From NCBI GenBank assembly GCA_019239875.1, contig JAFAZI010000197.1, positions 162 through 64,161 on the forward strand: a stretch of DNA of 64,000 nucleotides, in the 5' to 3' direction. Below, piece by piece: positions 1,464-14,404 of this stretch. The notes beneath the pieces were generated by a model. The model was not told where the DNA came from and ran no database searches. It worked only from the letters and a program-made list of their open reading frames with translations. This stretch comes from Frankiaceae bacterium (GTDB taxonomy: Bacteria; Actinomycetota; Actinomycetes; JAFAQI01). Position numbers and translations under genes: made by a program. Numbering within the stretch: position 1 is the stretch's first letter; every line of letters begins with the position of its first letter.

Positions 1464-3623
1464 CTACGCTGCGGCGGGGTCGGGGTACATCGTCAGAAGC
1501 GTGTCGGCGTTCACCGGTCGGCCGTAGAGCCAGCCCTGAGCATGCGGGCAGCCGAGCTCGATCAGGCGATCGGCCACCGGCGGCTCCTCGATCCCCTCGG
1601 CCACGATGTCGAGGTTGAGGGCCGTGCCAAGGCGGATCACCGACTCGACGATGGCGAGGTCGGTCGGTGAGGACAGGACGCCGGAGACGAACGACCGGTC
1701 GACCTTGACCGTGTCGACAGGCAGCGACCGGAGGTAGGTGAGCGACCCGTAGCCCGTGCCGAAGTCGTCGAGCGCGATCTTCACGCCGTTCTCCGACAGC
1801 GTGCGCAGTTCACTCAGCCCGGAACCGACCAGGTCGACCAGCTGGCGTTCGGTGACCTCCAGGGTGAGGGCGCCGGGTTTCAGCTCGTAGTCCTCGCACA
1901 TCCGGGCCACCGTCGCCGCCAGGTCGGACCGGAGCAGCTGCTTCGCGGAGACGTTGATCGACATGGACAGGTTGCTGTTCGGGGACTGCCATTGCGCGAG
2001 CGTTGCGCACGCCTGCTCGAGCACCCACTGCCCGATCGGGACGATGAGGCCGGTCTCCTCGGCGACCCGAATGAACTCGGCCGGCGGCATCAACCCGGAC
2101 TGCGGGTGATGCCAACGCAGCAACGCCTCCGCGCCGACGACGCCGCCACTCGCGAGATCGACGATCGGCTGGTAGACCGCGGCCAGCTGGAACTTGTCGA
2201 GCGCGTCGCGCAGGTCGCGCTCGGTTTCGAGTCGGCCCACGGCCTCCGCTCGCAGTGCGTCGTCGAACACCTCCCACCGCGACCGGCCCTTGTCCTTGGC
2301 GCGGTAGAGCGCGGTGTCGGCGTCACGCAGCAGTTCCTCCGCCGTACGGCGCTGATCACCGGAGATCGCGATGCCGACGCTCACCGTCACCGCCAGCTCA
2401 TTGCCGTCGACCGTGACGGGTCGTTCGAGCGTGGCGCGGGTGCGGTCGGCGATCGCGACCGCTTCCAGCTCCGCGGCCCCGGGCTCGGCCGGCAAGTCGT
2501 CGCAGCACACGATGAACTCGTCGCCGCCGATTCGCGCGACGGTGTCGACCGGCCGCACCGCCTCAGGCAAGCGGGCGCCAACGACGCGTAGGAGCTCGTC
2601 GCCGGCGTCATGACCGAGCGAGTCGTTGATCACCTTGAAGTGGTCGAGGTCGAGGTACATCACCGCGACGCTTCGCCCGGAGCGAACCGACCGGGCCAGC
2701 GCCTGCCGGATCCGGTCGAGCGCCAGCAACCGGTTCGGCAGCTGGGTCAAGGCGTCCACGAAGGAGTACTGCTCGATCTGCTCCTGCGCCCGCCTGCGGT
2801 CGTTGACGTCCTCGATCTGGGCGATCGCCTGCCACATGTTGCCGTCGCGGTCACGCAGCAGCGACCCGGTCATCTCGACCCAGGTGGGCTCACCGTCGGC
2901 ACGGATCATGCGAATCTCGATGGCGAACGGACGGTCCGGCCGACCGAGTGCGCGGGTGTAAGCGGCGATCGCCCCGTCGACGTCCTCCGGGTGGATCCAG
3001 TCGACCAGCGGTCGGCCCTCGATCTCCTCGGCGCGGGCTCCGAGGATGACGTGCAGCGCGTGGTTGCTGGCCACGACGCGGCGCGTGCCATCGGGCTCAA
3101 AGGTCGTCAGCGCCATGCCGACGTGGCTGTCCTCGAAGGCGCGGCGGAACCGGTGTTCGCTGACCGCGAGCGCCTCGATCGCTTCGGTCCGCTCGGCCAG
3201 CGCTGTGGCCAGCTCGTTCTGTATCCGTTGGCGCTCGACGGCGTAGCGAACCGTGCGCACCAGGTTGTCGACGTCGATGCGTCCTTTGACGAGGTAGTCC
3301 TGAGCGCCGGCTGCGACGGCTTGGATCGCGAGGCTGTCGCTGTCGGTCCCGGTCAGTACGACGGTGGCCGTGCCGCGGCTCGCCTCCGTGAGGCTCAACA
3401 GCCCGGAGAGACCTTGCGCATCCGGCAGTCCGAGGTCCAGCAGGATGCAGTCGTACGCCTGCGTCGCGAGCCGGGCCGTCGCCTCGGCGATGCTGCTCGC
3501 GTGCGACGTGGTGACAGGAGATGTCGAGTGCCCGAACATCGCGTCGATGAGGACATGGTCGTCGGGCGAGTCGTCGATGACGAGGACTCGGTCGGCCGCC
3601 GTCGGGGGGTTGCTGGCGGTCAT
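1464..3623 (-). CDS. REC-PAS-GGDEF-EAL diguanylate cyclase/phosphodiesterase
   Basis: REC ([19 protein letters not shown]), PAS (WIHPED), intact GGDEF, EAL and DDFGTGY. Start set at MTASNPP. Confidence 0.92.
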
Positions 3624-3852
3624 TTCACCCCCATGTTGACTAGTTGGTTGTCCGACCCCCTCCCGATGCTGAGCATCAGGAGTGACTCGAACCAAGTCCG
3701 CACGCGAGTACTCGCAGTCTGACCCGCCGACACAAGCCCGACAAGTAGCCTGCAGCTTTCATTTCTTGTGTATCGCCCGTCACACTGGCATCAATCCGGC
3801 AAATGGGTGAATTTCAAAACGCTACCGAATTGGATTCTTTTACAGAACAGGC

Positions 3853-3955: not shown

Positions 3956-4573
3956 TCAGTCGGCGTAGATGTTGACCAGCGGTTCGGGGTACGCCGACTC
4001 CGGTGCGCGGCCCGTTGCGACGAGGACGTACGCCATACCGGTCTCATCCGCGGACGGTGCCGTCGGTGTGCAGCCGAGCTTGCCGAGTTCGGTCGTCACG
4101 TGCGAGATCGCGGGCGCCAGGCCAGGACCCAGCTCGGAAGGCCGGCCGACCGCCGCGCGGATGTCGTCGGCGTGCAGGAACGCGTCGTACCAGAGGGCCT
4201 CGACGGCATCGGCGAGCGTGCCGTCGTACCCACCCGGTGCGGGCTGCGACCACGACTCCTCCGGGAACGCGGGAAGCAGCGCCTCGGTGGCCTTGCGGAC
4301 CTCGGCGCACTCGTCGGCCAGCTCCTTCAGCGAGGACGAGCGGCGCTCTGCGACCTCGCGCTCGGTAACCTCAGGCGTGCCCAAACCCTCCAGCCGGCCG
4401 GCGGCGATGTCTGCCATCGTGCCGATCATGTGGGCGGACACGTCGCCGACGCTCCAGCCCGTGCAGCGGGTGGGGGTGTCCCGGTCCTCACTCGGCAGCG
4501 AGCGGAGGAGTTCCTCGAACCGGTCGAGCTCGGACAGCAGTCCGGCGCTGAGCTGGTCTCTCGTGAAGATCAT
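3956..4573 (-). CDS. Mycothiol-dependent maleylpyruvate isomerase (MDMPI/DinB-like) family protein
   Basis: TPTRCTGWSVGDVSAH and DAFLHADDIRAA motifs. Confidence 0.8.
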   Translation of the reverse strand: MIFTRDQLSAGLLSELDRFEELLRSLPSEDRDTPTRCTGWSVGDVSAHMIGTMADIAAGRLEGLGTPEVTEREVAERRSSSLKELADECAEVRKATEALLPAFPEESWSQPAPGGYDGTLADAVEALWYDAFLHADDIRAAVGRPSELGPGLAPAISHVTTELGKLGCTPTAPSADETGMAYVLVATGRAPESAYPEPLVNIYAD

Positions 4574-4596
4574 TGACGGCCCTCCCAAGGCAACTA

Positions 4597-4613
4597 ACAT
4601 GCAGGCTGCACGC
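4597..4613. promoter_or_regulatory. Putative TetR operator between divergent genes
   Basis: Palindrome TGCAG-G-CTGCA within ACATGCAGGCTGCACGC, immediately before the TetR start codon. Confidence 0.4.
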
Positions 4614-4617
4614 ATTT

Positions 4618-5241
4618 ATGTCAGATAAGGAGCCCGCCGTCAAGCCGTCGTCAGCGACGCCCGCCAGGCGCACGCAGAGTGAACGCAGAGCGGCCACCCG
4701 CGGCGCGCTCGTCGCGGCGGCTCGCGCGCTGTTCGCCGAACGCGGTTTCGCCGGAGTGAGTCGCGAGGAGATCGTCGAGCGCGCCGGCGTGACCCGCGGC
4801 GCGATGTATCACTACTTCGCGTCGAAGGAGGACCTGTTCCGCGCGGTCTACGAGGAGGTCGAACGCGACTTGTGCGAGGCGATCGCCGTCGCGGCGATGA
4901 CCGCAGGGGACGACCCGGTCGAGGAGCTGCGCCTCGGCTCGGTCGAGTTCCTGCGGTCGGCGACCCGGGGCGAGGTACGGCGGATCGCGGTGCTCGACTC
5001 TCCGGCGGTACTCGACGCCGAGACCCGCAACGCCGTTGCGGAGCAGTACGGCCTCGGAATGCTGCGGGCCGCGCTCGCCGCCGTCGACGGCGCCGGGCGA
5101 CTCGCCGCCGGTCCGGCCGACCAGCTGGCGCCGATGCTGATGGCGGTGCTTCACGAAGCGGCGACGCAGATCGCCGACGGTGCCGACCCGGCCACCACGA
5201 TCGGGCTGGTCGAAGCGCTGCTCGAGCGCATCACGACGTGA
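4618..5241 (+). CDS. TetR/AcrR family transcriptional regulator
   Basis: HTH LFAERGFAGVSREEIVERAGVTRGAMYHYFASKEDLF. Confidence 0.92.
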   Translation: MSDKEPAVKPSSATPARRTQSERRAATRGALVAAARALFAERGFAGVSREEIVERAGVTRGAMYHYFASKEDLFRAVYEEVERDLCEAIAVAAMTAGDDPVEELRLGSVEFLRSATRGEVRRIAVLDSPAVLDAETRNAVAEQYGLGMLRAALAAVDGAGRLAAGPADQLAPMLMAVLHEAATQIADGADPATTIGLVEALLERITT

Positions 5242-5350
5242 CGCGCAGGCGGCCACCTTGCCGGAAGGCTGACACAACGCGCCGTTGTGGTTGAGCACTC
5301 CGATTGCCAGTGCGAGACTGCGGCTCTCTGCAACGGACATGGGGGACTGG

Positions 5351-7420
5351 GTGGGCTACTACATCGGGGTTGACCTCGGGACGACGTACACGGCTGCTGC
5401 CGTCGCCCGAGACGACCGCGTCGAGGTAGCGGCGCTCGGCAACCACTCGACGGCTGTGTCGTCCGTCCTCTGGGTGGGTGAGCAGGGTGACGTGCTCGTC
5501 GGCGATGCCGCGCAGCGCCGAGCGCTGTCCGATCCCGCCCGCGTTGCCCGGGAGTTCAAGCGCCGCCTCGGTGACACGACCCCGCTGTTGCTCGGCGGCA
5601 CGCCGTACTCGGCGGAGGCACTGTCGGCGAAGCTGCTGTCGTGGGTCGTCGCGGAGGTGACCCGGACTGAGGGCGCGCCGCCGGACGGCGTCGCCGTCAC
5701 CCACCCGGCCAACTGGGGCTCGTACAAGAAGGACCTGCTCGCCCAGGCCGTCCGGCTGGCCGACCTTCCGGCGGCGACAACCCTCACCGAGCCACAGGCC
5801 GCCGCGATCTTCTATGCCTCGCAACAGCGGGTCGAGGCGGGTGACGTGGTCGCGGTCTTCGACCTGGGTGGCGGCACCTTCGACGCGGCTGTGATCCGCA
5901 AGGTCGACGACGGCCGGTTCGACATCCTGGGCGAGCCGGAGGGCATCGAGCGACTCGGTGGGATCGATTTCGACGATGCGGTCTACGCCCATGTCACCGC
6001 GATGGCGCAGGAGGCCATCGACGGTCTCGACCCGGACGATCCGACGGCGGTGACCGCGGTCGCGAGGCTGCGCGAGGAGTGCGTCGAGGCGAAGGAGGTG
6101 CTGTCCTCCGACACGGAGACGACGGTTCCGGTGATCCTGCCGTCGATGTCCACCGAGGTGCGGTTGACCCGGGCCGAGTTCGAGGACATGATCCGGCCCC
6201 GGATCGAGGACGCCATCGGGGCGATGCGCCGCTCGCTGGCCACCGCCGAGGTCGAACCGAAGGACGTCAAGGCGATCCTGCTGGTCGGCGGGTCGTCGCG
6301 GATCCCGCTGATCGCGCAGATGGTGTCGGCGGCCTTCGGCCGGCCGGTGGCCGTTGACGCCCATCCCAAGAACGCCATCGCGATGGGGGCGGCGATCGCT
6401 GCCCGGACGGCCGCGGAGGGGCCGGTTGCCGAGGCGGCCGCCGTCGAGGAGCCGCCGCTGCCCGTGCAGCCGGAACGGGACACGACCGCAGTGCTGGGAT
6501 CACCGCTTGCCGATGCCGAGCTGGCTCCGACCACCCCCCTCGTCACGCCGCCGTCGGTGCCCCCGCCGCCCCCGACCGCGAAGGGCGGCCGGAGCAAGGC
6601 AGCGATGATCCTGCCGGCGTTGCTCGGCCTCGCGCTCGTCGCCGGCGGCGCCTATTACATGTTCGGGCGCGACAAGGGCCACGACCACAACAAGTCCAAG
6701 GCGTCGTCATCGTCAGGGACTTCGGGGTCGAGCGGGTCGAGTGGCTCGAGCAGCGGGGGGACACCGACCACGGCACCGACGCCGCACGAGATCCTGACCG
6801 AGGACCTCCTGCTCAACCCGGCGAGTGACACCACACCGGTCGACTCCCACGGCTCGATCGAGTGCCAGAACGTCGCCGCCTGGGCGCGCGGGGTCGACCC
6901 GTCGACGGCTGGCTCCAACTTCCAGACGCAGTGCGTCCGGGTCACGTGGCAGAAGGACGGGTCGGACGAGCAGGTTGTCGCGGCCTTCACGACGACCGCC
7001 GATGGGTCGCTGTCGCCGCGGGTGGAGATCCTGACCCAGGACGCCTCCGGCATGTGGATCCCGGTGCTCGACGCGGACGGATCGGCGGAGAGCTTCTCGA
7101 AGGCCACGATCAGCGACCCCTCCCTGACCGGGAGCGGCGAGGTCGACCCCGAGTTCGTCGTCAACTGGCACAAGAACGACGGCGCTCAGCAGACCACGAT
7201 CGTGCAGAGCAACAACGGGGTGCCGGCGGTCATCGGCCAGACCATCGAGGCGTTCCAGGCGAGCCTCGTGATCAGCGGCTCGCGAATCGTCATCTACGGC
7301 GCCAAGACCGACGGCGGCGACCTGCGGCAGAACACCATCACCTGGAACTCCTCGCAGGGGAAGTACTTCGGGTTGTTCAACTACGACGTGCACCCGCCGG
7401 TCCCGTCGTCCTCGCTGTGA
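5351..7420 (+). CDS. Membrane-anchored Hsp70-family protein (ATPase domain, Pro-rich linker, TM helix, extracytoplasmic domain)
   Basis: GVDLGTTYT, VFDLGGGTFD and LLVGGSSRIP motifs. No DnaK substrate-binding domain. TM segment MILPALLGLALVAGGAYYMF, then a Ser/Gly linker. Alternative start ATG 5339. Confidence 0.88.
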   Translation: MGYYIGVDLGTTYTAAAVARDDRVEVAALGNHSTAVSSVLWVGEQGDVLVGDAAQRRALSDPARVAREFKRRLGDTTPLLLGGTPYSAEALSAKLLSWVVAEVTRTEGAPPDGVAVTHPANWGSYKKDLLAQAVRLADLPAATTLTEPQAAAIFYASQQRVEAGDVVAVFDLGGGTFDAAVIRKVDDGRFDILGEPEGIERLGGIDFDDAVYAHVTAMAQEAIDGLDPDDPTAVTAVARLREECVEAKEVLSSDTETTVPVILPSMSTEVRLTRAEFEDMIRPRIEDAIGAMRRSLATAEVEPKDVKAILLVGGSSRIPLIAQMVSAAFGRPVAVDAHPKNAIAMGAAIAARTAAEGPVAEAAAVEEPPLPVQPERDTTAVLGSPLADAELAPTTPLVTPPSVPPPPPTAKGGRSKAAMILPALLGLALVAGGAYYMFGRDKGHDHNKSKASSSSGTSGSSGSSGSSSGGTPTTAPTPHEILTEDLLLNPASDTTPVDSHGSIECQNVAAWARGVDPSTAGSNFQTQCVRVTWQKDGSDEQVVAAFTTTADGSLSPRVEILTQDASGMWIPVLDADGSAESFSKATISDPSLTGSGEVDPEFVVNWHKNDGAQQTTIVQSNNGVPAVIGQTIEAFQASLVISGSRIVIYGAKTDGGDLRQNTITWNSSQGKYFGLFNYDVHPPVPSSSL

Positions 7421-7449
7421 TCACCGCCGAAGGAGACTGAGAGCACGCC

Positions 7450-8274
7450 ATGGCATCGCTGCAGGAGCTGTTGAAATGGCTCGAGCAGTTCATGCACGGC
7501 AACCTCTCGCAGCACAACCAGCCGCACGCCCCAACCAGCGCAGCCGGCGCGGTGCCTCATGCGTCCATGCCCTCCATGTCGTCGATGCCGCACGCGCCGA
7601 TGCCGGCCGGCGCGGATCATCCAGGGCTGCCGCCTGGGCTGGCCGGCGCCTCACCGCAGGAACTTCAGGCGGCCATGCAGCAGTTCACCGAGCGCCACCC
7701 GGAGCTCGCGCCGTACCTGCACATCGACGGGTCGACCGATCTGCAGTCGATGCTCAGCCAGCTGCAGTCGATCCCGGTGGAGGCGTTGCAGGGCTTCACG
7801 CCGTCGACCGACCTGGCCGAACCTGACGGCTTCGACCTCGGCGGCCCGATGGCCGCGGAGTTCGGCGTGCCCGGGTTCGATGCCGAGGACGTCAGCAACT
7901 TCAACAGTTTCGCTGATGGGCTCGGGTCCGGCGGCGCCGGCGAGCTCTCCGATCTGCCGTCCGTGCTGCTGGACCCGACAGCCGGTGAGTTCGGCCCGTT
8001 GCCGACGTCGGTGGGCGCCGGCATCGGCGACGACTACGACGCGTTGGCCGGAGCCCTGTCGGGTGACCTGGGCGCCGACTACACCGACCTGCTGGAGAAC
8101 GTGCCGACGGTCAGCTTCGAGCCAGATCTACCGACCGTCGAGCCGATCGGGGAGAGCTTCGATCCGGCCACCCAGGACTTCGACGCCGGGCTTCCGGCGT
8201 ACGACGAGCAGCAGTTCGAGGCACCGCTGCACGGCGAGGACTTCACCCAGGTCGAGGACTACCAGGACCAATGA
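7450..8274 (+). CDS. Highly acidic hypothetical protein in the IniB/Rv0340 position
   Basis: Strong RBS (AAGGAG). Stop overlaps the dynamin start (ATGA). Only one Lys and one Arg. GLAGASPQELQAAM weakly resembles the IniB N-terminal domain. Confidence 0.7.
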   Translation: MASLQELLKWLEQFMHGNLSQHNQPHAPTSAAGAVPHASMPSMSSMPHAPMPAGADHPGLPPGLAGASPQELQAAMQQFTERHPELAPYLHIDGSTDLQSMLSQLQSIPVEALQGFTPSTDLAEPDGFDLGGPMAAEFGVPGFDAEDVSNFNSFADGLGSGGAGELSDLPSVLLDPTAGEFGPLPTSVGAGIGDDYDALAGALSGDLGADYTDLLENVPTVSFEPDLPTVEPIGESFDPATQDFDAGLPAYDEQQFEAPLHGEDFTQVEDYQDQ

Positions 8275-10142
8275 CAGCGCCGAATCCAACCCCCGCGGCC
8301 GCGCCCGATGCGGGCAAGCAACGCGGCGAGCTGATCAAGGTCATGGCGGCCGCCGCCACCGCGGCGCAGAACGGCAAACGCGGCGACCTGGTCAAGAAGC
8401 TGCAGTCGGCGACGGCGCGCCTGACCTCCAGCGGTGCGCGGGTCGCGGTTGTCGGGGAGTTCAAGAAGGGCAAGAGCTCGGTCGTCAACTCGCTCATCGG
8501 CGGCGCGGTGTGCCCGGTCGACGACGACATCAGCACCGCCGTACCGACCGTTCTGCGCTATGCGGACACGCTGTCCATCACAGGCGTCGCCCTCGAGGGC
8601 GAGCCACCGAAGGAGGTCGCCAAAGAGCTCAGCAAGGAGCAGATGGGCAAGGCGATTCGCGGTGCGGGTGACTTCCAGCGCGTGGAGATTGCGCTGCCGA
8701 GCCCCTTGCTCAAGACCGGACTGGTGGTCATCGACACGCCGGGTGTCGGTGGTCTGCAGTCGGAGCACGCGTTGCGAACGCTCGCGATGCTGCCGTCCGT
8801 GCATGCGCTGCTGTTCGTCTCGGACGCGACGCAGGAGCTGACCGCTCCAGAGATCGCCTTTCTCGCCAACGCGCGGCGCCTGTGCTCCAACGTCGTCTGC
8901 GTCCTCGCGAAGACCGACATCTTCCCGTTCGTCGATGCGGTGGTCGAGGCGAACCAGAAGCATCTGACGAACGCCGGGATTGCCGCTCCGATGATGACGG
9001 TCTCCTGCGAGCTTCGAGCCCGCGCCCGGGCGGCGAAGGACCCGGTGCTGGGCGAGGCGTCGGGATTCGGGCCGCTCGAGGCGATGCTCGTCACGCGGAT
9101 CGCGGCGAACGCCGAGGCGTTGGCAATGCGCGCCGCCGCCGCCGATGTGTTGAGCGTTCTCGACCAGCTGTCCAAGCCGCTGGCAGCGGTGCGGGAGGCG
9201 CTGAAGACGCCCGAGAACCAGGCCGAGCTGCAGGCCAATCTCGAAGCGGCGAAGCACCGTGCCGAGTCGCTGCGGGCGCAGACCGCCAAGTGGCAGATGG
9301 TGCTCTCCGACGGCGTGATGGACCTGCAGAACGAGGTCGACCACGACATGCGGGCGCGGATGCGAGCCATCAGCCAGGAGGCAGAAGCGTCACTCGACCA
9401 GAGCGATCCAGTGAAGATGTGGGACGAGTTCGGGCAGTGGCTCGAGACTCGGGTCGTGTACGACGTCACCGAGAACTACGTGATGTTCACCCAGCATGCG
9501 CTCGCCCTGACCGAGCGGGTCGGCGCGATGTTCGCCGAGGACGCCGCTGACCTCGGCGAGGTCGCGAACGTCGCCGCCCCGACTCATCTGCTCGACAAGG
9601 TGATCGACCCTGAGCTCCCGAAGGCCGCCCTGCAGGGAGGCGGTGGTTCGGCCGCGATCTCGTTGTTCCGCAACACCTACAGCGGAATGTCGATGTTCGG
9701 GGCGCTCGGGGGCCAGGGAATGATGCACATCTTCACCGGGGCGATGAACCCGTTGACGCTCGGTCTCGGTCTCGTCCTCGGCAGCCGGTCGGTCAGCGAC
9801 GAGCACACCCGGCAGCTCGAGGCTCGCCGAAACCATGCCAAGGCGGCGGTCCGCAAATACACCGACGAGGCGTCGTTCGTCGTCGGCAAGGACTCCCGCG
9901 ACGCGATCCGCACCTTGCAGCGGTCGGTGCGTGACACGTACTCCGCACTCGCCGAGGAGCTCGTCAGGTCGACCACGACCGCGGTGCAGCAAGCCACCGC
10001 GGCTCTGCAAGGCGCGCAACAGGATCACCAGAAGAAGCTGCAGGCGATCGACGCGACGTTGAAGGCGTATCAGACGCTCGCCGCGCAGGCGGCGAAGTTC
10101 GCGCCGCCCGTCGCCAAGGCAGCCCCGAAGGCAACCGGCTGA
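8271..10142 (+). CDS. iniA: Bacterial dynamin-like GTPase, IniA-like
   Basis: G1 GEFKKGKS, G3 DTPG, G4 AKTD, helical stalk and hydrophobic paddle (FRNTYSGMSMFG...NPLTLGLGLVLG). Symbol reflects family-level similarity. Confidence 0.85.
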   Translation: MTAPNPTPAAAPDAGKQRGELIKVMAAAATAAQNGKRGDLVKKLQSATARLTSSGARVAVVGEFKKGKSSVVNSLIGGAVCPVDDDISTAVPTVLRYADTLSITGVALEGEPPKEVAKELSKEQMGKAIRGAGDFQRVEIALPSPLLKTGLVVIDTPGVGGLQSEHALRTLAMLPSVHALLFVSDATQELTAPEIAFLANARRLCSNVVCVLAKTDIFPFVDAVVEANQKHLTNAGIAAPMMTVSCELRARARAAKDPVLGEASGFGPLEAMLVTRIAANAEALAMRAAAADVLSVLDQLSKPLAAVREALKTPENQAELQANLEAAKHRAESLRAQTAKWQMVLSDGVMDLQNEVDHDMRARMRAISQEAEASLDQSDPVKMWDEFGQWLETRVVYDVTENYVMFTQHALALTERVGAMFAEDAADLGEVANVAAPTHLLDKVIDPELPKAALQGGGGSAAISLFRNTYSGMSMFGALGGQGMMHIFTGAMNPLTLGLGLVLGSRSVSDEHTRQLEARRNHAKAAVRKYTDEASFVVGKDSRDAIRTLQRSVRDTYSALAEELVRSTTTAVQQATAALQGAQQDHQKKLQAIDATLKAYQTLAAQAAKFAPPVAKAAPKATG

Positions 10143-11608
10143 TGTCGAACTCGCTGCTGGCGCGAACCGCGTCGGTCGCCGACCGAGCCGTCGCGGCGTA
10201 TGCCGGGTCACCCGTCGAGGCCGCCAGCGTGGAGATCCGTCGCCGGCTGGACCTGCCGGTGCAGGTTGCGATCGCTGGAAAGGTGAAGGTCGGCAAGTCG
10301 ACGCTGCTCAACGCGCTGGTCGGCGAGGAGCTCGCGCCGACGAACGCCAGTGAGTGCACGCGCATCGTGACCTGGTATCGCCGCGCCGAGGTGACGCAGG
10401 TGACCGCCGTGCCGTACCAGGGGTCGCCGCACCCGGTGGCGTTCTCGCGCAACGGCGCCCTCGACGTCGAGCTCGGCGCCGAGTCCGCGGAGTCGCTGCG
10501 ATGGCTGATGGTCGACTGGCCGACCGAGCGGCTCCGGGCGATGACCTTGGTCGACACGCCAGGCATCGCGTCGCTGTCGACCGACCTCTCGCAACGCACG
10601 ACCGCCTTCCTCGATCCGACCAGCGAGGACCCGGGCACCGTCGATGCGGTCATCTACCTGATGCGACACATGCACACCGCAGACGTCCGGCTGCTCGAGA
10701 GCTTCCACGACCACGACCTCGCGCAGCCGAATCCGGTCAACTGCATCGCCGTGCTCTCGCGCGCCGACGAGATCGGAGTGTGCCGGCTTGACGCGATGAA
10801 GTCGGCGCACGCCATCGCAGATCGATACATCGTGCAACCCTCGATCCGGCGCCTGGTGCAGGACGTCGTACCGGTCGCCGGCCTCCTTGCCCAAGCCGCC
10901 GTGTCGCTCCGGGAAGAGGAGTTCCGGTTCCTACGGTCGATGGCGCAGGCAGGGGTCCGCTCGAACTCGCCGGTGCTCGGTTCGGTGCAGGAGCTCTCCG
11001 CGGCGGACACCGAGATCGACGACGTCGTCAGCGCCTCGGTGCGTCGGGCACTGGTCGAACGATTCGGGCTGTTCGGGGTGCGGTGGGCGATGGAGTGGCT
11101 GTCCCGGGCGCCGGAGGCGACGGCGACCGAGCTCGCCGAAGCGCTCGCGAAGGTGAGTGGCCTCACCCATCTCCGCGAGATCGTGATGCAACAGATCGCC
11201 GCACGGTCCGGGCTGCTCAAGGCCCGCTCGGCGATGACCGCGCTGACGCGCCTCGCGGCGACGAACCCGGTCAACGGGCTGTCGGAGGAGCTGGAGGCGC
11301 TGGCGGCGGGCGCACACGAGCTCGCCGAGCTCCGCATGCTCAACGCCCTCCGGCTCGGCGCCGTACCGCTGAAGGACGACCAGCTCGCAGAGGCGGAGCA
11401 GATCCTCGAACGCTCCGGCCAGGCGGCCGCGGCGCGGATCGGGTTGCCACCGGACGCGGAGGTGGGCGAGGTACGACGCAAGCTGCTGGCCTCGCTCGAG
11501 ACGTGGCAGAAGCGGGCCGAGAACCCGCTGTCCAAGCAGGCCGTGGTCGATGCCTGCCGCGTGCTCATCCGTAGCTACGAGGGGATGCTCACCGACCTCG
11601 CCGGTTGA
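10142..11608 (+). CDS. iniC: Bacterial dynamin-like GTPase, IniC-like
   Basis: G1 GKVKVGKS, ECTRIVTWY, DTPG, G4 SRADE, AHELAELR. TGATG coupling to the upstream dynamin. Symbol reflects family-level similarity. Confidence 0.85.
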   Translation: MSNSLLARTASVADRAVAAYAGSPVEAASVEIRRRLDLPVQVAIAGKVKVGKSTLLNALVGEELAPTNASECTRIVTWYRRAEVTQVTAVPYQGSPHPVAFSRNGALDVELGAESAESLRWLMVDWPTERLRAMTLVDTPGIASLSTDLSQRTTAFLDPTSEDPGTVDAVIYLMRHMHTADVRLLESFHDHDLAQPNPVNCIAVLSRADEIGVCRLDAMKSAHAIADRYIVQPSIRRLVQDVVPVAGLLAQAAVSLREEEFRFLRSMAQAGVRSNSPVLGSVQELSAADTEIDDVVSASVRRALVERFGLFGVRWAMEWLSRAPEATATELAEALAKVSGLTHLREIVMQQIAARSGLLKARSAMTALTRLAATNPVNGLSEELEALAAGAHELAELRMLNALRLGAVPLKDDQLAEAEQILERSGQAAAARIGLPPDAEVGEVRRKLLASLETWQKRAENPLSKQAVVDACRVLIRSYEGMLTDLAG

Positions 11609-11611
11609 TGG

Positions 11612-12226
11612 CTAGAACAGGTCCCCGATGTCGTCGATGATGCTGGAGCCGACGTCCGCCACGTCGTCGACCACGCTGGTCGCAACATCTGCGACCGCAC
11701 CGCCGACGAACTCTGCGTCGTCGACGAGCACATCGCCGAGCAGGCCGGCACCGTCGCCGATCGTCTCGCCGACGTCACTCGCAGCGTCGCCGACCCAGCC
11801 GGCGACTGAGCCGAGGGCACCGCCCACGTCATCGACGACATCCATGGCGGCGTCGCCGATCGCGCCATCTCCGATATCGCTGAAGACCTCGCCGACGTCG
11901 TCGACGATGCTGCTCCCGATGTCGATGATCGGCGCGGCGATCCACTCGGCGTCGTCGACCAGCACGTCGCCGAGGACCCCGGCGCCTTCGCCGATCGCCT
12001 CACCGACGTCAACCACCGCCCCCGCGATCCCGCTCGCGACGTCACCGGCGGTGTCGACGACATCCATCGCCGCGCCGCCGACGATGTCCGCCGCCTGACC
12101 GAAATCACCGTCGACGACCGCACCAGCGATGCCGCCGATTCCCTCAGCGACATCACCGACCGCGTCGATCACCGGCTCCGCGAGGTACTCAGCGCCTTCC
12201 GCTACGCCCTCGAAGTACTCCGTCAT
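11612..12226 (-). CDS. Acidic Gly/Asp/Val/Ala-rich repeat protein ending DDIGDLF
   Basis: 204 aa with no Lys/Arg, an internal duplication, and a start 11 bp after the upstream stop. Confidence 0.7.
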   Translation of the reverse strand: MTEYFEGVAEGAEYLAEPVIDAVGDVAEGIGGIAGAVVDGDFGQAADIVGGAAMDVVDTAGDVASGIAGAVVDVGEAIGEGAGVLGDVLVDDAEWIAAPIIDIGSSIVDDVGEVFSDIGDGAIGDAAMDVVDDVGGALGSVAGWVGDAASDVGETIGDGAGLLGDVLVDDAEFVGGAVADVATSVVDDVADVGSSIIDDIGDLF

Positions 12227-12237
12227 GACGGGCTTGG

Positions 12238-13020
12238 TCAGAACAGGTCGCCGATGTCGTCGATGACGCTGCCGACCGCGTCGCCGATAGCTTCACCGGC
12301 ACCTTCGACTGCGTCCACGACTCCACCGCCGACGTCACCGACGACTCCGCCGACGTCAGCGAGGCCGCCGAACAGGCCACCGCCGATGTCCTCGACCTCG
12401 TTGACTACGCCGCCGAACACGTCGCCGACCGCGCCGGCACCGGCTTCGAGGCCGCCGAGCAGGCCGCCCGCGGCGTCCTCGACGCCGCCGACGACTCCGC
12501 CCACCCCGGACTCGATGCCGCCGAGCAAGCCCCCTCCGACGTCCTCGACGGCTCCGATCACACTTCCGACACCGCTCGCGACACCTCCGACGACGCCCAT
12601 GCCGATGTCCTCCGCGCCGGTCAGCAGACCGCCGCCGATGTCCTCCAGGCCGCCGAGCACGTCACCCGACGCGATCTCGCCCACCCCGTCGACCAGACCA
12701 CCGACCGCTGCCTCGCCGCCGCCGATCACACCGCCCGCGATGGACTCGACGCCGTGCAGGGCACCACCGGCGATGTCACCGGCTCCGGCCAGCGCGCCAC
12801 TCGCCACCGACTCGACCCCGTGCAGTGCCCCGCCGGCGACTGACTCGGCCGCGCCGAGCTCGCCACCTGCGACCGACTCGAGCCCTTCCAAGCCGTGGCC
12901 CATGACGCCTTCCGCGGTCCCCAGCGCGTCGTGCCCCAGCTCCTCGGCGATTCCCAGTTCGCTCTCGAGCTGATGCTCGATGGCGGAGACGCCATCAGAA
13001 AAGCCGTCCTCGATGCTCAT
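12238..13020 (-). CDS. Acidic Gly-rich 11-mer repeat protein ending DDIGDLF
   Basis: 260 aa with no Lys/Arg/Pro. Repeats GLESVAGGELG/AAESVAGGALH/GVESVASGALA. RBS GGGGA upstream. Confidence 0.72.
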   Translation of the reverse strand: MSIEDGFSDGVSAIEHQLESELGIAEELGHDALGTAEGVMGHGLEGLESVAGGELGAAESVAGGALHGVESVASGALAGAGDIAGGALHGVESIAGGVIGGGEAAVGGLVDGVGEIASGDVLGGLEDIGGGLLTGAEDIGMGVVGGVASGVGSVIGAVEDVGGGLLGGIESGVGGVVGGVEDAAGGLLGGLEAGAGAVGDVFGGVVNEVEDIGGGLFGGLADVGGVVGDVGGGVVDAVEGAGEAIGDAVGSVIDDIGDLF

Positions 13021-13064
13021 CGCTGTCCCCGATTCTCAGATGTCAGTGGTTGATGGAGAGGGCG

Positions 13065-13586
13065 TCAGCCCTCAAAGACCCCGCCGGGCCCCTGGTCGAT
13101 CGTGTAGTCCGGCTCGGCTTGCATCGTCTCGAGCGTGTGACCTTGGTCTTCGAAGCTCGAGAACTCCTGCGTCGGGTTGAGGTGAGCCTCGAGCTCCTCG
13201 ATCTGCTGCTCGATCTGGTGCAGCTCCTCGAGCGGGCTCATCGACTGCGGGTCGGATCCGGCGACTGGGTCGGATCCGGCACCTGGGTCCGCCGGGTGCT
13301 GCGCGAGCAGGTCCTGGTAGGCCTCGCCCATGGTCTGGTGGTTGGCGTCCTGGTAGGCCTGACCGACGGTCTCCACGTTGCCAAGCGTCGGCGGCGCGTC
13401 GCCGGCCAGCTCGTTCACAACCTCGACGAAGCCCGGCTCGAGAACTTCGGCGAGCAGGTTCGGGTCCTCCCGCAGCGCTGCCATCACGGCGTCGTGGTCG
13501 TTCTCGATCGCGCGCTGCTCGGTGTACTGGGTGCCCGCGAGGATGTCCGGGATGTTGTTGGCGGAGATGTCGTCGTTCTGACTCAT
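13065..13586 (-). CDS. Acidic hypothetical protein, first gene of the repeat-protein operon
   Basis: ATG preceded by AAGGGGGA. Short repeats (ETVGQAYQD/QTMGEAYQD; AGSDP x2) and a coiled-coil-like LEELHQIEQQIEELE. Confidence 0.65.
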   Translation of the reverse strand: MSQNDDISANNIPDILAGTQYTEQRAIENDHDAVMAALREDPNLLAEVLEPGFVEVVNELAGDAPPTLGNVETVGQAYQDANHQTMGEAYQDLLAQHPADPGAGSDPVAGSDPQSMSPLEELHQIEQQIEELEAHLNPTQEFSSFEDQGHTLETMQAEPDYTIDQGPGGVFEG

Positions 13587-13748
13587 GCGAGTCCCCCTTG
13601 ACACAGGATCCGATCCGAAGGGGTCAAACGGTCGCACCGGGCGTAGTAGGTGTCAAACGGTTCCGGAAACTCGCCAAAAGTTTTGTCAGATTCGCGACAA
13701 CTCTGCTGTTGATGGCCTGCGTCGGCGCCAATAGAGGGTGCCGACTTG

Positions 13749-13807
13749 GTGACCTTGACGCTTGTGGCCCTTGAAGGTGCGCAGGAGACCACAAGCGTCA
13801 AGGTGAC
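13749..13807. repeat. Long intergenic inverted repeat (REP-like palindrome, family C)
   Basis: Perfect 16-bp arms ACCTTGACGCTTGTGG (13752-13767) / CCACAAGCGTCAAGGT (13789-13804) with a 21-nt spacer. Confidence 0.8.
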
Positions 13808-13862
13808 GGGCTTCAGGAAGCGCCTGGAAGCCGTGGCCTAGCCGCAGTCCCGTCGTACCGAT

Positions 13863-13883
13863 AATCTGACGCCTCGTCAGATT
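13863..13883. promoter_or_regulatory. Operator-like palindrome upstream of the AhpD/CMD gene
   Basis: AATCTGACG-cct-CGTCAGATT, perfect 9-bp arms just before the RBS. Confidence 0.5.
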
Positions 13884-13895
13884 GCGGAGGGGAAC

Positions 13896-14384
13896 GTGGC
13901 GCGGATCGATCTGCCCGACGGCGACCAGCCGGATGTCGTCAAGGCGCTCGTCCTGCGGCCCGCGTTCGCCAAGGGCGTCGGCGCGATGAACGAGGCGTGC
14001 TTCGCGAGCACTCTCGACTGGCGACTGCACGAGCTGGTGCGGTACCGGATCGCGATCATCAACGGGTGCGCGACCTGCCTCAGCTGGCGCACACCGGAGG
14101 CGGTCGAGGCGGGTGTCACCGAGGACCTGCTCGTGGGCGTCGCGGACTGGCGCACCTCCGAGCGCTACACGGACCGCGAGAAGATCGCGCTCGACTTCAC
14201 TGAGCAGTTCTGCGGTGACTCGGCGGGGATCAGTGACGAGTTCATGGCGCGGCTCGGCGAGCACTTCGACGCCGGCGAGATCGTCGAGCTGGCGCTCGTG
14301 ATCGGCAAGTACCTCTCACAGGGCCGGTTCATGCAGGTGCTCGGCCTGGACCAGGCCTGCGTGGTGCCGACGGCTGCTCCGTGA
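13896..14384 (+). CDS. Carboxymuconolactone decarboxylase/AhpD family protein
   Basis: HELVRYRIAIINGCATC (CxxC), YTDREKIALDF, HFDAGEIVEL. Confidence 0.85.
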   Translation: MARIDLPDGDQPDVVKALVLRPAFAKGVGAMNEACFASTLDWRLHELVRYRIAIINGCATCLSWRTPEAVEAGVTEDLLVGVADWRTSERYTDREKIALDFTEQFCGDSAGISDEFMARLGEHFDAGEIVELALVIGKYLSQGRFMQVLGLDQACVVPTAAP

Positions 14385-14404
14385 CCGACTCCGCGCGCGG
14401 GGGG

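Follow-up and report, generated by a model that had tools for sequence, protein, structure and literature searches.

A region of seven genes (g1–g7) in a Frankiaceae bacterium, located within a 64,000-nucleotide stretch of contig JAFAZI010000197.1 (assembly GCA_019239875.1; hereafter the window), probably represents a lineage-specific, extended ini-type (iniBAC) system for envelope stress and membrane remodelling, in which the two repeat proteins g5 and g6 are included. The layout does not stand alone but represents the form taken in one lineage by an extended ini locus that is widespread and of which the iniBAC core has been described. The preliminary description of the window did not know the seven-gene layout as a described system; its core is of a known kind, and no description of the Hsp70-like and modular acidic additions was found in the literature searched. 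The novelty lies not in the seven-gene layout itself but in an extended ini locus combining an Hsp70-like ATPase with modular proteins that lack Lys and Arg (K/R-free) and carry a Phe-ended tip, a locus that is widespread in Actinomycetes and for which we found no description. The iniBAC operon is the classic reporter of mycobacterial cell-wall damage. According to published accounts, IniA acts in membrane fission (PMC6715688), vesicle release by Mycobacterium tuberculosis depends on IniC as well as on IniA (PMC10240201), and IniB is a vesicle cargo of unknown function (PMC10240201) that is Gly-rich and occurs in the cell-wall fraction (PMC7350357); no partner of the IniA/IniC dynamin pair was found in the literature searched.

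The ini core and the seven-gene layout

The window comes from a 65-kb contig in a genome of 4.15 Mb (~69% GC, 206 contigs), and the seven genes lie between a TetR gene (4573–5241) and a carboxymuconolactone-decarboxylase (CMD)-family gene (13896–14384). Four plus-strand genes encode, in order, an Hsp70-like ATPase with one predicted transmembrane (TM) helix (g1, 5339–7420), an acidic protein of a rare family that has a conserved N-terminal module and occupies the position of IniB (g2, 7450–8274), and two dynamin-like GTPases (g3, 8271–10142; g4, 10142–11608). They converge on three minus-strand genes, of which g5 (11612–12226) encodes a 204-aa K/R-free Gly/Asp/Val repeat protein ending IIDDIGDLF, g6 (12238–13020) a 260-aa K/R-free Gly-rich protein of 11-residue repeats ending VIDDIGDLF, and g7 (13065–13586), which heads the operon, a 173-aa acidic protein with a conserved N-terminal domain of ~95 aa. 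Overlaps of 4 bp between g2 and g3 and of 1 bp between g3 and g4 indicate that these three genes are translationally coupled, and 3 bp separate the stop codon of g4 from that of g5. The GC content of third codon positions (GC3) is 0.82–0.91 across g1–g7, so that all seven look coding. Contigs from an independent metagenome DNA run (X2) are identical to the window and span 10978–11648 (IniC/g5) and 12194–12846 (g5/g6); as they bridge these junctions, the layout is real and the convergent junction is no assembly artefact. Counts of Asp plus Glu against Lys plus Arg are 44/2 in g2, 46/0 in g5, 44/0 in g6 (with 79 Gly in 260 aa) and 37/5 in g7 (190-aa reading). The convergent layout with its 3-bp gap, the coupling of g2, g3 and g4, and the Asp/Glu bias with almost no Lys or Arg in g2, g5, g6 and g7 had all been claimed in the preliminary description and are borne out by the coordinates of the open reading frames (ORFs), the overlaps and these counts.

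The first GTPase, g3, is an IniA orthologue: phmmer aligned it with IniA of M. smegmatis (PDB 6J72) over residues 29–611 of 623 (E 1.4e-92, 314 bits), and its similarity to other bacterial dynamin-like proteins (DLPs) is weaker (BDLP, 5e-12; Campylobacter DLP, 2e-09). Pfam Dynamin_N is found in both g3 (4.9e-20) and g4 (4.6e-10), and the translations show the dynamin G motifs, namely a GKS P-loop, DTPG and KTD in g3, and GKS, DTPG and RAD replacing KxD in g4. The latter protein is 37–41% identical to the product of the gene after iniA in loci of family f40, and the three such loci that were scored carry Rv0340_fam or IniB_NTERM proteins. Given the match of g3 to IniA together with the Dynamin_N domain and f40 homologues of g4, the two genes are, on sequence evidence, an iniA–iniC pair and form an iniBAC-type core of an already described kind. 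The proposal that the plus-strand genes make up an iniBAC-like operon is thus upheld by the IniA match, the two Dynamin_N domains and the overlaps. IniC-like genes were present in 43 of 301 genomes forming an even sample of the class, and among relatives the locus is patchy (3 of 41 genomes).

The Hsp70-like protein and its link to the dynamin pair

The Pfam HSP70 match in g1 (PF00012, E 1e-57) covers residues 105–374 only, corresponding to the ATPase domain, and the NCBIfam DnaK and HscA models score 172–175 bits against cut-offs of 620–822, which identifies g1 as an Hsp70-like ATPase and not as DnaK. The ATPase domain is followed by a Pro-rich linker and the predicted TM helix, after which a Ser/Gly linker leads to a C-terminal domain of ~200 aa that contains two Cys. 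No substrate-binding domain was detected in g1 with Pfam, and the domain after the TM helix is unrelated to one. An AlphaFold2 model of the C-terminal part, built from the single sequence, reached a predicted local distance difference test (pLDDT) value of 40, too poor for a fold search. The longest ORF of g1 begins at a TTG codon at 5285, and the ATG at 5339 suits the usual Hsp70 N-terminus.

Comparison with other loci confirms the earlier suggestion that the Hsp70-like gene is a genuine companion of the dynamin pair. Homologues of the g1 nucleotide-binding domain (NBD; 51–64% identity) were found in 36 of 80 metagenome IniC loci, which are not all independent, and, where the locus extends over at least 8 kb, in 24 of 39; one TM helix is predicted after the NBD in 20 of 21 3'-complete homologues beside iniAC, with lengths of 608–772 aa. 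In the class sample (41 loci, one partial match being left out), an Hsp70-like match lies within 9 kb of iniC in 33 loci, some of these matches being canonical dnaK, and at least 23 of the 41 have a match with a TM helix. Nocardia farcinica (NZ_LN868939.1) carries a divergent gene for an Hsp70-like protein with a TM helix, followed by genes for a 1042-aa IniB, IniA and IniC and then dnaK-grpE-dnaJ, and Nonomuraea gerenzanensis has a more distant dynamin pair followed by an Hsp70-like gene whose product has C-terminal hydrophobic segments; both loci were read directly from DNA records that carry no annotation. Among the 41 genomes closest to that of the window, g1-type NBDs (E ≤1e-50) occur in exactly the 3 with IniC, a co-occurrence that, since kin are not independent, has the standing of a pattern rather than of a test.

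Several individual arrangements were also observed. At 10661–14385 of the N. farcinica locus, iniA–iniC stands immediately 5' of the canonical dnaK-grpE-dnaJ genes, and canonical DnaK is encoded within 9 kb of iniC in several loci of the class sample, where it gives matches of 27–28% identity without a TM helix. The Nocardia Hsp70-like protein (1676–3679, minus strand) continues after its TM helix with a Pro/Ala-rich stretch and then with Gly/Val/Glu repeats (GEGVGGVVGGV type) resembling g6; the presence of g6-like repeats beyond the TM helix favours an envelope-side, presumed outer, role of the repeats. Locus L101 (G086) contains two Hsp70-like genes with TM helices (56% and 60% identical to g1) beside iniC, with an acidic gene of the convergent family between them (4788–8990). 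In G031, from another family, a g1-type gene (43%; 2345458–2346594) and an IniC-like gene (37%; 2376349–2377812) lie ~30 kb apart on C1, which suggests that the link need not mean adjacency.

Acidic proteins, their Phe-ended tips and their surroundings

When the 4.15-Mb genome was filtered for ORFs of at least 70 aa with K+R ≤3%, D+E ≥12% and coding-like GC3, seven ORFs passed, of which four are g2, g5, g6 and g7 and two others carry the same C-terminal tail. Both g5 and g6 are made of diverged 11-residue (33-nt) repeats and end IDDIGDLF. Periodicity is found at lags 11 and 18 in g5 (z ~6) and at lag 11 in g6 (z 10.5), in which 33-nt DNA repeats are 60–77% identical; the autocorrelation peaks of the two proteins at lags 4, 7, 11, 18 and 22 residues are the signature of an amphipathic helix, with a Val/Leu/Ile face set against an Asp/Glu/Gly face. 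No Pfam or NCBIfam model matched g5 or g6, and a word-based homologue search with g5 returned nothing at E 0.001, not even g5 itself; as low complexity defeats such searches, motifs, BLAST without masking and an all-against-all library were used instead.

We define here a DDIGDLF-tail family by K/R-poor Gly/Asp/Val repeats, helical periodicity and the C-terminal motif D-[DE]-[IL]-[GE]-[DS]-[LIF]-[FL]; its members are g5, g6, C40a, C40b, C85, G006conv, L017up and P0021–P0027. Five tail-bearing genes were found in the genome, namely g5, g6, two tandem genes on a 2.3-kb contig (C40) and the gene of a 476-aa protein (C85). The tandem genes (C40 581–1609; L004) encode proteins of 170 and 167 aa that end VIDDIEDLF and IIDDIGDLF. 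A search of 1.84 billion representatives with C85 gave only 13 matches, including 7 true relatives, all ending D-D-[IL]-[EG]-[DS]-[LIF]-[FL]; C85-type members have a Gly-zipper-like hydrophobic segment, the feature common to the weak matches P0030–P0032. A scan of a contig collection for the back-translated tail produced 4 matches, all dismissed as chance occurrences in non-acidic frames of unrelated phyla; the collection may lack close relatives, and the scan has little bearing on distribution.

Members of this family recur beside dynamin genes. In G006, a second genus of the family, an operon encoding an Hsp70-like TM protein, a g2-like protein, IniA and IniC meets, 17 bp from IniC, a convergent Gly-rich gene whose product ends VVDDIGDLF and conserves end and length at only 34% identity. 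The g2-like protein of this locus is a 762-aa fusion in which the first 144 residues match g2 (E 2.5e-22) and the last 212 match C85 (50% identity, E 9e-41), ending DDIENFL; P0024 and P0022 likewise join the g2 N-module to tail-family sequence. Among 25 genomes of the family, the 2 with a g6-like gene are also the 2 with an IniC-like gene, and in locus L017 (IniC 74% identical) the gene of a C85-like protein with the terminus DIGSIF ends 1 bp before iniA.

The neighbourhood analysis of IniA/IniC homologues for which the preliminary description had called showed that K/R-poor acidic ORFs are common 5' of iniA, being present on the same strand in 24 of the 36 metagenome loci with room to see them and adjacent in 21 of the 36. 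Those that were scanned have the N-terminal domain of IniB (NF038175). In 12 of 56 loci iniC is followed directly by a convergent acidic gene, which in all 12 lies between iniC and a divergent Hsp70-like gene, and this convergent family (A3) is related to IniB_N (hhalign 95%, E 2e-8); the convergent layout therefore has parallels in other ini loci, though with other proteins.

The g2 family is small, with 7 homologues among 5.8 billion clusters, and its alignment (A1) shows the conserved N-terminal module; a metagenome scan with this alignment gave 591 pattern matches, none of which was confirmed, and ESM Atlas searches with g2 and g7 gave no usable match. For the g2 homologue P0008 and for the g7 homologue P0016 the longest contig recorded is 92,651 nt in each case, and the two may lie on one contig. 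The Rv0340 family model (NF038176, cut-off 100 bits) did not match g2, g5, g6 or g7; its cut-off is passed by proteins of the related loci L117 and L126. Nocardia IniB, with 1042 aa, has 2 K/R, 316 Gly and helical periodicity. As the IniB_N domain is absent from g2, g5 and g6, these proteins are not called IniB here, but they hold its place and share composition, periodicity and tip, and so seem to stand in for it. The suggestion that the role of IniB has been split and expanded fits the fusions of g2 module and tail and the K/R-poor repeats of Nocardia IniB; no homology of g2 or g7 to IniB_N was detected.

Ends of the form D[IL][GE][DS][LIF]?F occur in only 6 of the 7158 ORFs in the 80 metagenome loci; all six belong to acidic ORFs 5' of iniA, five of which are distinct, and four of these five have IniB_N. 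In other ini loci, IniB_N proteins terminate in DIGSF. More broadly, F, FD or FE ends were found in 14 of 42 distinct acidic ini-locus ORFs against 22 of 1562 other ORFs in the class sample, and in 8 of 57 against 17 of 1431 in the metagenome loci, and the two Rv0340_fam proteins that were scored (163 and 192 bits) end GFDIF and GFDLFD. Judged by these termini, a Phe-ended acidic tip is a module common to otherwise unrelated ini-locus proteins. In the openly accessible article texts searched, nothing was found that connects iniBAC or other dynamin operons of bacteria with an Hsp70-like protein or with acidic tips ending in Phe.

The remaining minus-strand gene, g7, begins with an ATG that has a GGGGA Shine-Dalgarno sequence and agrees with the 173-aa database form; its N-terminal domain is strongly conserved among 10 homologues, all of them metagenome proteins. 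Membership of g7 in the ini system is unproven, the only ground for it being that it heads the operon that also contains g6 and g5. Between g7 and the divergent CMD-family gene, a gap of 310 bp contains a perfect 16-bp inverted repeat (arms 13804–13789 and 13767–13752, 21-nt loop) and, nearer g7, two direct copies of CCGTTTGAC, ~30 nt apart; these elements may be an operator or a terminator. On the other side of the cluster, the plus-strand TetR-family gene directly 5' of g1 (Pfam TetR_N 1.9e-19, TetR_C_41 3.9e-16) had no tetR counterpart in the 41 class loci, and as it is not conserved in related ini loci, this regulator is probably a local one. Between it and g1 lies a perfect 7-3-7 palindrome (CACAACG-CGC-CGTTGTG, 5273–5289), which is the sole zero-mismatch copy of CACAACG-N3-CGTTGTG in the window (5 matches with ≤3 mismatches, 3.6 expected) and is a likely candidate for the TetR operator. 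A promoter and terminator scan near the operons yielded nothing beyond chance. The ten flanking ORFs that were scanned have ordinary functions in metabolism and signalling, and none of them is a mobile or defence gene. A response-regulator-PAS-GGDEF-EAL protein of cyclic di-GMP (c-di-GMP) turnover is encoded 1.6 kb 5' of the cluster (window 1464–3695, minus strand), and the title of a 2026 paper (PMC13413693) connects the regulation of mycobacterial iniBAC with a c-di-GMP receptor.

Possible mechanism, competing explanations and known systems

A mechanism can be proposed in which, under envelope stress, the IniA/IniC pair would use GTP to bind and to cut or reseal the cytoplasmic membrane, in line with what has been shown for mycobacterial IniA and for vesicle release dependent on IniA and IniC, and the Hsp70-like protein, whose ATPase would face the cytoplasm and whose variable C-terminal domain would lie outside, would act as a membrane-resident organiser or sensor. 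The acidic repeat proteins would be clients that dock via the Phe-ended acidic tip, sit on or in the stressed membrane via their hydrophobic face (in C85-type members via the glycine-zipper segment), and depart in the vesicle or envelope fraction, where IniB of M. tuberculosis is reported to occur. Taken alone, this client and docking mechanism is tentative and less likely than not. The roles suggested in the preliminary description, with the Hsp70 as a transmembrane trigger and the acidic proteins as cargo or coat, are likewise hypothetical. A wider and less likely generalisation is that actinobacterial Ini machines have three parts (IniA, IniC and an Hsp70-like ATPase anchored in the membrane), and that their substrates, a modular class of amphipathic acidic K/R-free proteins (the IniB, Rv0340, g2 and DDIGDLF families), combine an exchangeable N-module with a Phe-ended docking tip, are loaded on the stressed membrane and are exported in vesicles. 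If true, such a three-part machine would give IniB a function and would provide a signal-peptide-free route for export or coating. The extended locus offers several handles, namely the Hsp70-like ATPase beside iniAC (also with Rv0340-family proteins), the Phe-ended tip and the natural split and fused forms of the modules, and the role of IniB-type proteins for dynamins becomes directly testable in actinomycetes.

Several results weigh against treating the whole region as one ini system, and part of them would suit an alternative that we consider unlikely, in which only the plus-strand operon is an ini system and g5–g7 form an unrelated, abutting operon of acidic Gly-rich stress or envelope proteins. 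The paralogue C85 is encoded far from dynamin genes, flanked by genes for a thioredoxin-TPR protein and for an enoyl-CoA hydratase, and the C40 pair lies on a contig too short to show wider context; g7 is unique to the window among the loci fetched, its profile finding no match in G006 (96% complete), G031, G001 or any other of them; locus L016 (IniC 74% identical) has no acidic ORF within 1.5 kb after IniC; and no operator shared by the upstream regions of g1 and g7 was found. Against an unrelated operon, the convergent arrangement is kept in a second genus (G006), genes of the tail family occur in fusion with the g2 module or directly 5' of iniA, the tail recurs on IniB_N proteins of other ini loci, and four of the seven such ORFs of the genome cluster here. 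Co-occurrence of the minus-strand genes with dynamin loci elsewhere, claimed in the preliminary description, thus holds for g5 and g6 (synteny in G006, the L017 relative 5' of iniA) and was not seen for g7, which was found in no other ini locus among those fetched. Further points that count against an extended ini system concern IniB itself: hhalign detected no homology between the g2 family and IniB_N (probability 0.9%) or between g2 and A3, and gave probabilities below 3% for g7 against IniB_N, A3 and g2, NF038175 had no match at E 0.1 in g2, g5, g6 or g7, and no IniB_NTERM was seen genome-wide, a weak negative as control genomes were equally silent. In addition, homology among the repeat proteins rests partly on biased composition, correction for which lowers some pairs to E 1e-4 to 1e-6; the locus counts include near-duplicates (L035/L036, L071/L077, L075/L076, L085/L086, L046/G006); and the AlphaFold2 model of g5 (8 sequences), all-helical, has a pLDDT of 47, too poor for a fold search. 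A predicted complex of IniA with g5 residues 135–204 scored 0.00, with controls not run, and counts neither way.

Other explanations concern what the proteins do, or whether they exist. The acidic proteins could be negative regulators, acting as polyanionic lipid mimics that mask the dynamin membrane surfaces or hold the Hsp70-like ATPase until stress; their extreme negative charge without Lys or Arg and the adjacency of an acidic gene 5' of iniA in 21 of 36 loci would suit this role, as would the report that iniAC complementation of M. tuberculosis gives more vesicles than iniBAC (PMC10240201). We nevertheless think it improbable, as the reported presence of IniB in vesicle cargo and in the cell-wall fraction is more in keeping with export than with inhibition in the cytoplasm. 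A role in anti-phage defence, like that of the dynamin systems LeoA/LeoBC, might be suggested by PADLOC matches of g3 to LeoBC (2.2e-15) and LeoA (2.4e-12) and of g4 to LeoA (5.1e-05), and by the patchy distribution of the locus. However, the Leo matches are weak (55 and 45 bits) and accounted for by general dynamin homology, the 314 bits that g3 scores against IniA far exceed these, no other defence model matched any of the seven proteins, and related Mycobacteriales-type loci carry Rv0340_fam and IniB proteins; with housekeeping-type flanks free of mobile or defence genes among the ten ORFs scanned, the weak Leo matches make defence very unlikely. Lastly, it is barely conceivable that g5 and g6 are shadow ORFs of GC-rich repetitive DNA. 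Their low complexity, a 239-aa ORF on the opposite strand, the lack of Pfam or NCBIfam matches and the empty word-based search would be expected of such ORFs, but their GC3 of 0.82–0.84 with a second-position GC of 0.43–0.49 is that of coding frames, end and length are kept in G006 at 34% identity, relatives (P0021–P0027) are found in the all-against-all library, and the genes form a tight operon with Shine-Dalgarno-like sites.

An extended ini system, as preferred here, shares features with several known systems. Paired DLPs (Bacillus subtilis DynA, Streptomyces DynA/DynB, Campylobacter DLP1/2, Escherichia coli LeoABC) likewise comprise two adjacent dynamin-like GTPases with a presumed role in membrane remodelling (PMC6104087); no Hsp70-like or acidic repeat partners of such pairs were found in the portions of the literature searched. 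The mycobacterial iniBAC/Rv0340–Rv0343 locus has in common with the window an IniA orthologue, a coupled second dynamin-like GTPase and an acidic K/R-poor protein encoded directly upstream, as well as Gly-rich K/R-poor proteins accompanying the dynamin pair (here g5 and g6), and related loci carry IniB_NTERM and Rv0340_fam proteins. Unlike its mycobacterial counterpart, the window has no IniB_NTERM, the IniB position being taken by g2 with a different N-module; its Gly-rich repeat proteins are separate, encoded on the opposite strand and provided with the DDIGDLF tip; its operon is headed by an Hsp70-like membrane protein; and a TetR gene is found where mycobacteria have IniR (PMC10240201). 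The N. farcinica locus likewise brings together an Hsp70-like ATPase with a TM helix, a K/R-poor Gly/Ala/Val/Asp repeat protein, IniA and IniC. It differs in that the repeat protein is a single IniB of 1042 aa, which has an IniB_N domain and shares its coding strand with iniA, in that the Hsp70-like gene is divergent and its product ends in Gly/Val/Glu repeats, and in that dnaK-grpE-dnaJ follow iniC. Outside dynamin systems, synucleins, apolipoproteins, perilipins and group-3 late embryogenesis abundant (LEA) proteins have amphipathic 11-residue repeats with Lys flanking the hydrophobic face; the 11/3-type helical periodicity and single hydrophobic face of g5 and g6 are analogous and not homologous to these, as g5 and g6 are without Lys, Gly-rich and strongly acidic. 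The SSB C-terminus and the ribosomal stalk P proteins represent flexible acidic proteins in which an acidic-hydrophobic, Phe-terminal motif docks on partners, and, by analogy and without homology, the acidic proteins of the window also end in a short Phe-terminal acidic-hydrophobic motif.

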